From an uncultured Candidatus Saccharibacteria bacterium (GTDB lineage Bacteria > Patescibacteriota > Saccharimonadia > Saccharimonadales > CAYOYH01), in contig CAYOYH010000001.1 in NCBI GenBank assembly GCA_964408165.1, positions 1-38,805 on the forward strand: a stretch of 38,805 bases of DNA, read 5' to 3'. Of the stretch, positions 18,037 to 35,401 are shown in pieces (within the stretch, counting starts at the first letter, position 1; every line of letters starts with the position of its first letter). The notes under the pieces are model-generated. The model saw only the letters and a program-made list of their open reading frames with translations. It was not told the origin of the DNA and did no database searches. A program made the position numbers and the translations under genes.

Positions 18037-18825
18037 TTAAATGTTGAATAATTTTTCGGCGTTTTTAGTGGTCGCCTTGGCTAATTCCTCTAGCGATTCG
18101 TCTCTCAGATCACTCAGGAATTTTGCTATTTGCAGTGTTTGTTTTGGCTCATTTATTTTACCACGATAAGGGGTGGGCGTCAAGAACGGCGCATCTGTTT
18201 CCAGCACCAAAGAACCCAGCGGAACAGCTTTAAACGCTGCTAGTTGTTTCGAGTCTTTAGTGAAGGTCGTGATACCGTTTAGCCCCACGAACAAGCCACG
18301 AGATAATACCTCAGTTAATTCTTTTTGTCCAGCACTGAAACTATGAACCACGCCTTTGACGCCTGAATACTGGTCGAATATCGCCCAGAAATCTTCGTAG
18401 GCTTCACGTACATGGAAAATCATCGGCAAATCATACTCCTTAGCTAACGCCATCTGGAAGTGAAAAGCCTGCGCTTGGTCTTTTTTGTCGGAATGATTGT
18501 AGAAATAGTCTAGTCCGCACTCACCAATCGCTACCACTTTCTGTTGCAAGGGTACGGCCCTTGCAACATTTGATTTGTGGTTTAGCAAACTTTCTAGTTG
18601 ATTGTAAGTTTTTTGCCCTAGCTTGGCATCATGTGGGTGCAGACCGATTGAAGCCCAGACATTTTCTCTCGCGAACGCGAACTCAAGAGCTACTTTGCTG
18701 TCTGTGGCGTCGGTGCCGACAACTATCAGCTTGGTCACACCACGACTAGAGGCAGATTTTATCACTTCATCTGAATCTAACTTGTAGTCCAGTGAGTGAA
18801 TGTGACAGTGAGTGTCAACTAGCAT
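18037..18825 (-). CDS. tatD: TatD-family metal-dependent hydrolase/DNase
   Basis: DTHCHIH, ECGLDY, IFHVREA, VVHSFS, LETDAPFL. Confidence 0.9.
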   Translation of the reverse strand: MLVDTHCHIHSLDYKLDSDEVIKSASSRGVTKLIVVGTDATDSKVALEFAFARENVWASIGLHPHDAKLGQKTYNQLESLLNHKSNVARAVPLQQKVVAIGECGLDYFYNHSDKKDQAQAFHFQMALAKEYDLPMIFHVREAYEDFWAIFDQYSGVKGVVHSFSAGQKELTEVLSRGLFVGLNGITTFTKDSKQLAAFKAVPLGSLVLETDAPFLTPTPYRGKINEPKQTLQIAKFLSDLRDESLEELAKATTKNAEKLFNI

Positions 18826-33231: not shown

Positions 33232-34419
33232 TTATTTATCCAGGAGCGCTTCAACGCCTGGTAAATCTCTGCCAGCCATCAGCTCTAGGCTAGCTCCACC
33301 ACCAGTGGAAACATGAGTAAATTTGTCCACTAAGCCAAGCTTATGTATAAACCCAGCGCTGTCGCCACCGCCAATAATACAGTTTAAGTTTTGGCTGGCG
33401 ATAAACTTGGCCACTTCTTCGGTGCCTTTTTTGAACTTTTCAAACTCAACTACACCTAAGGGGCCGTTCCAGATAATCGTGCCGGCGGTTTTTAGGGTTT
33501 TTTTAATATTCTCGATAGTGCGGGGACCAAAATCCATTATTATGTCGGCACTGGCGACATCTTCGGTGGCAACATCATGCCTTTCGGAGCTTTGGTCAAA
33601 GCTAGTCCCCACTGCTACATCAAAAGTCGGTAGTATTAGTTTGGTTTGGCTCAGTTCGCAGTGTTCTATTACCTCTTTGGCGGTGTCTGTTTCGTGGGGG
33701 TCGTATTTGCTAGAGCCGACATCGTAGCCCATGGCCACTAAAAAAGTATTGGCCATCGCTCCGCCAACAATCATGCTGTCTGAAGCTTCTAAAAAGCGCT
33801 CCAACAGATCAATCTTGTCCGCTATTTTGGCGCCACCGACCATCGTTACTAGCGGTTTTTGGGGGTCGTTAATCGCTTTGTTTATGGCTAAAACCTCGCC
33901 CTCTAGCAGTAGTCCGGCAACGGCTGGTAAGAACTGAGTGATGGCGTCAGTACTGGCGTGCGAGCGGTGCACTACCCCGAAGCCATCTTGGACGAAATAA
34001 TCGGCTAGTTTGGCTAGTTGTTTGGCGAACTCAGCGTCATTGCTTTCTTCCTCTTTGTGAAAACGCAAGTTTTCTAATAACAACACCTCGGCAGGCTTTA
34101 ATTTTTTCGTAGCTTGCCAGGCGCCGTCGCCAACAGTTGTTGGTGAAAAAGCAACTTCTTGGCCTAGAAGTTCACTCAGCCTCTGGGCTACAGGTTCTAG
34201 GCTTAAATCTTTGCTTACCCCTGGGCCAGGTCGCCCTAGGTGGGAAATGATGATGACTTTGGCGTTTTGATTTAGTAAATACTGGATTGTTGGTATGTTT
34301 TTGCGGATGCGGTAATCGTCGGTGATTTTGCTGTCGCTCATTGGCACATTGTAATCAGCACGCACCAAAACGGCTTTATCTGTAAAATCTATATCTCGAA
34401 CGGTTTTTTTATTGAACAT
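33232..34419 (-). CDS. pgk: phosphoglycerate kinase
   Basis: VRADYNVP, ISHLGRP, GGAKIADKI, IIGGGDS, STGGGASLE. Start at MFNKKTV. Confidence 0.95.
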   Translation of the reverse strand: MFNKKTVRDIDFTDKAVLVRADYNVPMSDSKITDDYRIRKNIPTIQYLLNQNAKVIIISHLGRPGPGVSKDLSLEPVAQRLSELLGQEVAFSPTTVGDGAWQATKKLKPAEVLLLENLRFHKEEESNDAEFAKQLAKLADYFVQDGFGVVHRSHASTDAITQFLPAVAGLLLEGEVLAINKAINDPQKPLVTMVGGAKIADKIDLLERFLEASDSMIVGGAMANTFLVAMGYDVGSSKYDPHETDTAKEVIEHCELSQTKLILPTFDVAVGTSFDQSSERHDVATEDVASADIIMDFGPRTIENIKKTLKTAGTIIWNGPLGVVEFEKFKKGTEEVAKFIASQNLNCIIGGGDSAGFIHKLGLVDKFTHVSTGGGASLELMAGRDLPGVEALLDK

Positions 34420-34544
34420 CTTGAGTCTTAGTGTACCAAAACACTTATGGTTTTTTCGAATAAACCTCAAAGAAACAGCAACACTTCAACACGTGCTCTT
34501 GGTTTGCGAACCGAGGTTCGACCTTCTCCGGAGAGAAGTACCAA

Positions 34545-34569
34545 TCAAAAACGCCACCGCAAGGGTGGC
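34545..34569 (-). terminator. intrinsic terminator after tRNA-Glu
   Basis: On the minus strand, gccacc-cttgc-ggtggc is followed by GTTTTTG. Confidence 0.7.
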
Positions 34570-34578
34570 ATGTTTGAT

Positions 34579-34653
34579 TGGTGATCCCAACGGGAGTCGA
34601 ACCCGTATTTCCAGGATGAAAACCTGGTGTCCTAACCATTAGACGATGGGACC
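34579..34653 (-). tRNA. tRNA-Glu (anticodon UUC), CCA encoded
   Basis: GGTCCCATCGTCTAATGGTTAGGACACCAGGTTTTCATCCTGGAAATACGGGTTCGACTCCCGTTGGGATCACCA folds as a cloverleaf with a 7-nt anticodon loop UUUUCAU. Confidence 0.9.
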
Positions 34654-34654
34654 G

Positions 34655-34929
34655 TGTTTTTATTGTAACAATATTTTGAATTTAACGATGTTGATCTACT
34701 TGTAGTTCCCGATGAATCGGGAGGTGTCCTACTCACCGATATTTGTCTGGTGACAAATTCGTCGAGCCCACCTCGGCGCCGCCCATGCCTCCGGCCTTGC
34801 GAAATGCCACTAGCAGTTCTACCACGGTCTTACTCGCTACAAAGTAGCGAATCAGCCGTCGCCACACCTCGCATCGGGCGTTAACACGCGCCGGTGCTCC
34901 GGTCTTGCGGAATGCTCCCAGCATTCCTC
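34655..34929 (-). ncRNA. candidate structured RNA or insertion, bracketed by an 18-bp direct repeat of the tRNA-Glu 5' end
   Basis: The direct repeat cattagacgatgggaccg is at 34637-34654 and 34930-34947. The interior is GC-rich with many hairpins. A TATAAT on the minus strand lies at 34968-34963. Confidence 0.3.
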
Positions 34930-35044
34930 ACATTAGACGATGGGACCGCTAAAGACGAACGATATTATAGCTTATATCTCGCGCTGACAGAAGTGTTGGT
35001 GACATTTTTTGACATAGAAGCGATTGGGTGTTTTTATTAGATGC

Positions 35045-35401
35045 ATGAACCCTGAGAAATCGACACCTCATGGCGTGTTTAACGATTTTGAATTTACACC
35101 TGTGGGCTGGTGGTTAGACACCTTAGCGGAGGAAATTGCAAAAGAATTAGGGAAGGCTCCTAGAATTGGGCGAGGCTCTGTGGTATTGGAACAAAACGAG
35201 AACGAAACTATTGTTTCGTTCCGCCAAAATGGTTCAGAATCAATAGTCAGTATCCTCGAGATAGATGGTCGAATCGTTCTGAAAGTGCACCCTGAAGCAG
35301 AAATCCTAACCCCTGACCACGCTGACGACATCGCTCATGAATTAGTACACCAGCTCGGCTACGCCGAACATCATCCTGGCCCCAGTAAAAGTTGTTGCTA
35401 G
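35045..35401 (+). CDS. hypothetical small protein with a C-terminal HExxH motif
   Basis: ORF with an ATG at 35045 and the motif AHELVHQLGY. A TTGACA lies at 35009-35014. Confidence 0.45.
   Translation: MNPEKSTPHGVFNDFEFTPVGWWLDTLAEEIAKELGKAPRIGRGSVVLEQNENETIVSFRQNGSESIVSILEIDGRIVLKVHPEAEILTPDHADDIAHELVHQLGYAEHHPGPSKSCC

Follow-up and report, generated by a model that had tools for sequence, protein, structure and literature searches.

The GC-rich segment bracketed by two copies of the tRNA-Glu(UUC) 5′ end, on the minus strand of the window (the whole 38,805-nt stretch of DNA that was analysed, from an uncultured Candidatus Saccharibacteria bacterium), is composed of two tandem units, A and B, of one element family, and does not represent a single RNA. 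The family has hundreds of members and is apparently both widespread and undescribed. The segment is best read as a tRNA-loop module, in which D-loop bases of a partial tRNA copy have been replaced by A and B, the units being small, non-autonomous, mobile or recombining structured repeats; the probability of this reading is estimated at about 60%. The features of the locus are the following.

34964-34969, minus strand: TATAAT, a -10-like hexamer read from the sequence, 16 nt upstream of the first base of the partial copy.
34931-34948, minus strand: 5′ partial copy of tRNA-Glu(UUC), position -1 and positions 1-17, an exact 18-mer repeat.
34821-34930, minus strand: unit A, 110 nt, long type-1 variant, intact (model R1, 46.3 bits, E 1.6e-7).
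34732-34820, minus strand: unit B, 89 nt, short type-1 variant (model R1, 86.2 bits, E 2e-16, over 34732-34824).
34707-34731, minus strand: remnant of the interrupted tRNA copy, recognised by comparison with the intact tRNA.
34662-34670, minus strand: TGTTACAAT, an extended -10-like element read from the sequence, 8 nt before the intact tRNA.
34579-34653, minus strand: intact tRNA-Glu(UUC) with encoded CCA (ARAGORN; Rfam RF00005, 66.8 bits).
34551-34571, minus strand: intrinsic terminator-like hairpin with T run, after the tRNA (terminator scan, 8 pairs of which 5 are G-C).

The 18-mer CGGTCCCATCGTCTAATG was present exactly twice in the window, at 34637-34654 and 34931-34948, in both cases on the minus strand, with no occurrences expected on the basis of 100 shuffles. 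The duplication reported in the original prediction was accordingly found, with the upstream copy placed one base off (34947-34930). This copy contains the acceptor 5′ strand, the D-stem 5′ strand and the start of the D-loop, and in a BLAST search of tRNA-Glu(UUC) against its own genome (744 kb in 69 contigs), tRNA positions 1-17 matched 34931-34947. On the other side of the insert, TAGGACACC (34723-34731) corresponds to tRNA positions 20-28, and a 6-bp hairpin TCCCGA-TTCA-TCGGGA (34707-34722) is located where the anticodon arm of the partial copy is expected. The upstream copy is thereby limited to positions 1-17 and 20-28, and is devoid of the T arm and the acceptor 3′ strand. When the interrupted copy, TCTAATG / A+B / TAGGACACC, is compared to the intact TCTAATG-GT-TAGGACACC, two D-loop nucleotides are seen to be replaced. 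No complete cloverleaf was obtained for the upstream copy, and both ARAGORN and Rfam (RF00005) identified the downstream tRNA-Glu(UUC) alone, in line with the earlier statement that the upstream copy does not continue into a foldable tRNA.

An insert that occupies a defined loop position and is flanked by tRNA sequence on either side could also indicate a present or recent second tRNA-Glu gene, from whose RNA an intron-like D-loop insert is removed; introns at D- and T-loop positions occur in archaeal tRNAs and offer a precedent for this. However, besides the absent T arm and acceptor 3′ strand, the anticodon arm is replaced by a hairpin with a 4-nt loop, removal of the units would leave the loop 2 nt short, all the partial copies examined in relatives are incomplete too, and no group I intron, group II intron or ribozyme match was returned by Rfam. 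A tRNA intron is largely refuted by the missing 3′ half, the exons not adding up to a complete tRNA, and we regard it as highly improbable.

The insert of the partial copy spans 199 nt (34930-34732), 79 nt upstream of the intact gene, and its GC content is 0.59, the window as a whole having 0.47 and the flanks 0.34-0.42. Its predicted fold was better than that of 200 out of 200 shuffled sequences (z = -3.3), which bears out its initial description as GC-rich and hairpin-dense. The Rfam search that had been proposed for the segment gave no family except tRNA: in Rfam 15, the region 34400-35150 matched tRNA alone even at E ≤ 10, and the same outcome was obtained at gathering score for 11 related loci. 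Group I and II introns, self-cleaving ribozymes, tmRNA, RNase P, Y RNA-like and GOLLD/ROOL families were covered by this search without a match. A 63-codon ORF (34733-34924) extends over both units and is rich in Arg and Gly, but a coding reading was rejected, as the ORF lacks a conserved partner and the A unit of the congeneric genome contains a 1-nt indel.

Both the TATAAT upstream of the whole arrangement and the terminator after the tRNA had been predicted and were located as listed above, while the second -10-like element, TGTTACAAT, had been missed. This element is contained in an AT-rich spacer (GC 0.34) and is similar to TGTTACACTAACAAC, the sequence preceding tRNA-Glu(UUC) in the genome of the same genus. 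Between TATAAT and the tRNA terminator, no other terminator was found by inspection or by the terminator scan, and because none lies between, co-transcription of the segment with the tRNA from the upstream TATAAT, followed by RNase P release, is plausible. On the other hand, the consensus promoter scan found neither a -35 element matching the TATAAT at 34964-34969 nor any full promoter, and the intact tRNA has an extended -10 element of its own.

Units of the family start with (U)GAG, an 8-bp hairpin and GCAAGG, and end with GUG(G/A)N. Both A and B have the three-hairpin organisation of about 86-110 nt, with the start UGAG-P1-GCAAGG and the end GUGR-N, except that the first two bases (UG) are missing from B. 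The scores of A and B (46.3 and 86.2 bits) were obtained with a covariance model built on units of relatives. In unit A, the hairpins P1 (34906-34930), P2 (34864-34905) and P3 (34821-34862) are also the minimum-energy fold of the unit alone (-53.6 kcal/mol). Unit B consists of P1 (34801-34819), GCAAGG (34795-34800), P2 (34770-34795) and P3 (34732-34766), and shares 73-79% identity with units that adjoin tRNAs for Glu and Gln in other families of the order. It looks the older of the two, because its P1 includes one C-U mismatch and its P2 is weak.

The four hairpins named in the original prediction all exist, and three of them take part in the conserved fold: in unit A, GGAATGCT/AGCATTCC forms P1 and CGCTAC-TTT-GTAGCG forms P3, and in unit B, TTTGTC-ACCA-GACAAA forms P3, while CCGG-AGCA-CCGG is outside the conserved fold. 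The internal duplication of GCATTYCGCAAGRCCGGAG is likewise real, and comprises the conserved P1 3′ strand together with the junction motif, that is, the start of each of the two tandem units.

RNAalifold analysis of six units resulted in three consecutive hairpins, P1, P2 and P3, without a closing stem. A covariance model was built from the six-unit consensus, and 32 type-1 units from 30 genomes were aligned to it. The covariation analysis on relatives, which had been suggested as a check, gave a clear outcome: 96.9% of the cells pair and 26 of the 31 pairs have changed on both sides in a compensatory manner, whereas sliding of the 3′ partners by 1-3 columns reduced pairing to 33-44%. The pairing figures are flattered by the alignment having been fitted to the model, the signal being far beyond that bias. 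The unit starts at the first paired base of P1 (U1-A, G2-C), and its final base covaries with the one that opens P3; therefore, the putatively mobile entity corresponds to exactly three hairpins. One G-U pair is near-invariant (28 of 32 units), and the purine-rich junctions GCAAGG and GGG are conserved among units. Over the 32 type-1 units, G-U combinations outnumber A-C combinations 60 to 8, and it is therefore the tRNA-sense strand that folds, either as RNA or as single-stranded DNA.

These family-level data bear on the simplest account of the locus, a decaying tandem tRNA duplicate that became filled with chance GC-rich sequence. The upstream copy is indeed not a functional tRNA, but hundreds of family members, strong covariation and near-identical copies in the same genome refute a chance filling, and this account is hardly credible.

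Twenty-four of the 32 best units have a same-strand tRNA 36-293 nt away, and in at least 19 the flanks align to the neighbouring tRNA, i.e. the unit is within a partial copy of its neighbour. Insertion places in the partial copies include the D-loop, the D/anticodon junction, the anticodon loop, the variable region and the T-loop. At a typical unit site 2 nt are missing, and the 5′ flank mostly ends in GG or GGG. The window agrees with this habitat, as its units are inside a partial copy of the adjoining tRNA, in the same orientation, with about two loop nucleotides replaced. The own genome as a whole follows the same arrangement: the model gave 16 matches at about 10 loci, all oriented as the adjacent tRNA, and some units are nested within the P3 foot of another unit. 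No partial tRNA copy lacking an insert was seen.

Seven further type-1 units (L032, L037, L041, L042, L043, L048 and L051) are located in the loop of another dispersed hairpin repeat, which is often tandem and whose loop reads ...AGAGGG/GG/TGGGCAC... or AGGG/GG/UGGGCACC. Type-1 units thus occur in a non-tRNA hairpin loop, and the targets are therefore hairpin loops generally and not tRNA loops alone. A nested unit pair in a non-tRNA context was also observed in the own genome (C36:7031-7303), for whose flanking sequence neither a second copy in the assembly nor an Rfam match was found. In addition, unrelated small hairpin-rich inserts are present in partial copies of Phe, Val, Leu(GAG), Arg(CCU), Met and Asn tRNAs of the same genome (C16:1680-2260, C16:4330-4900, C19:11270-11420, C36:4990-5420 and C61:1-340), such as CTCCGATGCTGCCAATCGGAG and a 57-nt insert following GGGTTCGAA, which indicates that several insert families use one habitat.

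On the side towards the intact tRNA, the modules carry a reverse-complemented copy, either of the T-arm and variable region in uninterrupted form or of the D-loop. Such an inverted target copy is specific to its tRNA, forms a hairpin and adjoins the unit, and the inverted copies must have been made locally. The window module has no clear inverted D-loop copy, and has the TCCCGA-TTCA-TCGGGA hairpin instead. Terminators after tRNA genes (C15:78-260; L046; L058) were observed to be long palindromes that pair with the CCA end of the tRNA itself, as in CTCCAATCTAA...TTAGATTGGAG, and within a module, one terminator looks like a duplicate of the other that has since diverged.

Within the order, 79 of 151 genomes gave a match to the model; outside it, matches were obtained in 7 genomes from other orders of the same class and in 4 whose labels place them in other classes of the phylum. 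Three of these four (G271, G227 and G205, one locus each read) have a two-hairpin form without P1, closed by a helix in which the T-loop and the 3′ strand of the T-stem, as reverse complement, are combined with a direct T-loop remainder; the loci (L095, L096 and L097) are downstream of tRNA-Ser, tRNA-Arg and tRNA-Glu. These two-hairpin relatives in other classes show that the family extends beyond Saccharibacteria. Eleven metagenome contigs contain a 21-mer belonging to the A subtype, next to tRNAs for Gly, Asp, Ala, Arg and Leu, with P1 and P3 that differ by compensatory changes, and no occurrence of unit B's own sequence was found in metagenomes. No description of this element family was found in the searchable literature.

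Within the own genome, segment positions 20-156 recur at 93-97% identity beside tRNA-Leu(UAG) and tRNA-Trp. Unit A itself is present in three copies, at tRNA-Glu, tRNA-Leu(UAG) and tRNA-Trp, which are 97-98% identical over 110 nt and have unrelated left flanks, namely the Glu D-loop and the Leu and Trp T-loops. Of the three, the copy at tRNA-Trp is divided between the ends of contigs C37 and C53, which overlap by 13 nt; breakage of the assembly at tRNA loci by the repeat family may explain why only 29 tRNAs were found. All three A copies are directly 5′ of another unit that lacks its UG. The loss of UG fits the two-nucleotide rule, because GGG/UG/AGAAAU resembles the T-loop site GGG/UU/CGAAU. 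As all three copies abut another unit, ordinary recombination could have spread A; on metagenome contigs, units of the A type also occur singly, inside copies of tRNAs for Gly, Asp, Ala and Arg. Specific to the window locus are the D-loop site, an intact young A beside a decaying old B, and a compensatory change in A, from A-U to G-C in P1.

In the genome of the same genus, the 17-mer is single-copy and there is no module at tRNA-Glu(UUC). This tRNA (L066, G001:C7:1-200) is located at a contig end and is inverted relative to pgk as compared to window positions 34400-34700, which indicates local rearrangement at tRNA-Glu(UUC); the two genomes do not form a clean filled/empty pair, with the tRNA inverted and at a contig end. 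Among 29 tRNA-Glu loci of other families, a unit of any kind is present at only about 4-6 and a strong type-1 unit at none, and this sporadic presence means that the window module is lineage-specific. Of the three options put forward in the original prediction, a decayed tRNA copy carrying an insertion is thus retained in combination with the footprint of an element, and a single, locus-specific ncRNA of about 275 nt is not, the same-genus relative and most other families having no module at tRNA-Glu(UUC).

A different picture was obtained at the orthologous tRNA-Leu locus, where A is 86% identical between two species with pgk genes of 69% identity, and the differences in A are compensatory. 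Better conservation of A than of pgk could mean in-place selection for a cell function. At tRNA-Gly(GCC), the architecture of the slot is kept across contigs and the unit types differ by lineage. Such data suggest an alternative according to which the units are domains of a functional cellular RNA, either a stable structured RNA or a protein-binding platform, provided with tRNA promoters and a tRNA-fragment handle, the apparent mobility being mere duplication and recombination among tRNA loci. The strong conservation of structure, including the near-invariant G-U pair and the purine-rich junctions, the persistence in very small genomes across the order and beyond, and the -10 box retained by the partial copy are all in keeping with such a function. 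However, the units are sporadic at any given tRNA, the content differs between two species of one genus, the units stack, nest and decay (B with its mismatches and missing 5′ end), and about half of the genomes of the order are without a model match. A functional RNA is accordingly a tentative alternative, possible though clearly on the less probable side.

An intact tRNA and a directly repeated partial copy of it, both provided with a promoter of their own, are also the classic signature of integration, and the locus could be the scar of an integrase-driven element that entered tRNA-Glu, supplied a 5′ part and a promoter, and lost its cargo, leaving the units as attachment-site arms. In this case the crossover should be abutted by the unit, but tRNA sequence is present on both sides of it. 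Neither cargo nor integrase was found at the 24 tRNA-linked loci, whose gaps of 36-293 nt are gene-free, and the own genome has one Xer-like tyrosine recombinase and neither a serine recombinase nor TnpB was found in it. Furthermore, the units nest in each other and in another dispersed hairpin, compensatory hairpin evolution is unexpected for protein-binding attP arms, and phage records and viral contigs gave no match to the units. Neither an integrase or cargo between the tRNA repeats nor an element arm at a crossover inside the identity block was observed, and an origin of this kind is quite improbable.

No convincing candidate for an enzyme moving the units was identified in the own genome or in the survey of 151 genomes. 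Two RAYT-like HUH (Y1_Tnp) genes were identified in the own genome, at C11:17786-18418 and at C55:1056-1913. Each has REP-type palindromes in inverted orientation on its two sides, TTGCAAGG(G)-N5-(C)CCTTGCAA, and the genome contains about 25 such palindromes at dispersed positions, with window copies near 18546 and 31101. These genes and palindromes constitute a classical REP-RAYT system in a 744-kb genome. RAYT-like Y1 genes were detected in 45 of the 151 genomes, of which 31 have a unit match, compared to 48 of the 106 genomes without such a gene, a weak association in a hand count uncorrected for genome relatedness. With flanking palindromes of its own that differ from the units, and this weak association, RAYT was rejected as the mover. 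Reverse transcriptases were present in 30 of the 151 genomes. In the own genome, a 381-aa reverse transcriptase with a YADD motif (C14:10764-11906) comes after about 400 nt of GC-rich, hairpin-rich non-coding sequence and may belong to a retron-type system.

Neither terminal inverted repeats nor target-site duplications were found: UGAG... at one end of the unit and ...GUGRN at the other are not inverted repeats, and the target loses 2 nt. A MITE or another IS-derived miniature element was rejected on these two grounds. We know of no transposition chemistry that fits a loss of 2 nt together with locally made inverted target copies. It is conceivable, if rather unlikely, that the units are tRNA-loop-homing elements in which the fold does part of the work, or that tRNA fragment and scaffold together make up a guide-like RNA. 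In the homing case, single-stranded DNA or RNA would recognise hairpin loops after a G-rich stem end, insertion would proceed by way of an intermediate with a hairpin or fold-back, accounting for the loss of 2 nt as well as for the inverted target copies, and the enzyme, host-encoded or other, would be unlike known transposases.

According to the preferred reading, a tRNA-loop module of mobile or recombining repeats, the units would survive only in spare tRNA-derived hairpin loops, mostly after a G-rich 5′ flank, by replacing about 2 nt. At tRNA-Glu(UUC), B would be the older resident, with P1 and P2 mismatched and the first UG lost, and A a later arrival at the 5′ edge of B, either by insertion or by recombination through the shared P1-GCAAGG block. 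Transcription from the upstream -10 element would cover A, B and the spacer before reaching tRNA-Glu, from which RNase P would cut off the module during maturation as a leader of about 300 nt. Family membership, architecture, fold, strandedness, habitat, distribution and turnover are established by the observations above, while mobility and co-transcription on the tRNA-sense strand are inferred.

The genomes of Saccharibacteria and other Patescibacteria are among the smallest bacterial ones, yet most tRNA genes here carry these add-ons. The family would represent either a new survival route of selfish DNA beside essential genes or an unrecognised class of tRNA-linked RNA, and as a structured, strand-specific family in tRNA-derived loops it has no entry in RNA catalogues. 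In practice, the units break assemblies at tRNA loci (both C37 and C53 end inside unit A) and can mislead the annotation of tRNAs and pseudogenes. Since some Saccharibacteria are cultivable and genetically tractable, the question is directly testable.

In comparison to known systems, the modules are similar to the attachment-site duplications (attL/attR) that phages, ICEs and genomic islands leave at tRNA genes after integrase-mediated integration: in both cases an intact, functional tRNA is accompanied by a directly repeated partial copy, the identity ends where the mature tRNA ends, and several modules may accumulate at one tRNA. The modules differ in having neither integrase nor cargo, in the position of the element, which is inside the tRNA copy with two loop nucleotides replaced and not beside the crossover, in the use of D-, anticodon-, variable- and T-loop sites, and in the covarying three-hairpin fold and nesting. 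REP/REPIN sequences, which RAYT (Y1 HUH) transposases mobilise, and miniature elements derived from IS200/IS605 are likewise short, GC-rich, hairpin-forming, non-coding, dispersed and multicopy, with compensatory changes, one strand that matters, and no target duplications. However, REP/REPIN have no tie to tRNA loops, no 2-nt deletion and no inverted target copies; the RAYT genes here are flanked by palindromes unrelated to the units, and units occur in genomes without Y1_Tnp.

Rickettsia palindromic elements are structured repeats that have proliferated in very small, host-dependent genomes, in genes for proteins as well as stable RNAs, and we know of no transposase for them. They and similar selfish hairpin repeats of reduced genomes resemble the units in being small and structured; the Rickettsia elements are tolerated inside functional genes, whereas the units are restricted to partial tRNA copies without function, beside the intact gene, or to other hairpin loops, and always have the tRNA-sense orientation. 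The multi-position tRNA introns of Thermoproteales, in turn, have a bulge-helix-bulge structure, have been transposed among tRNA loops, and are spliced by the EndA endonuclease. These are alike in being related short inserts at D-, anticodon- and T-loop positions of many tRNAs, but they reside in complete, essential tRNA genes, whereas the units occupy half-missing copies with the intact gene alongside, in a bacterial host.
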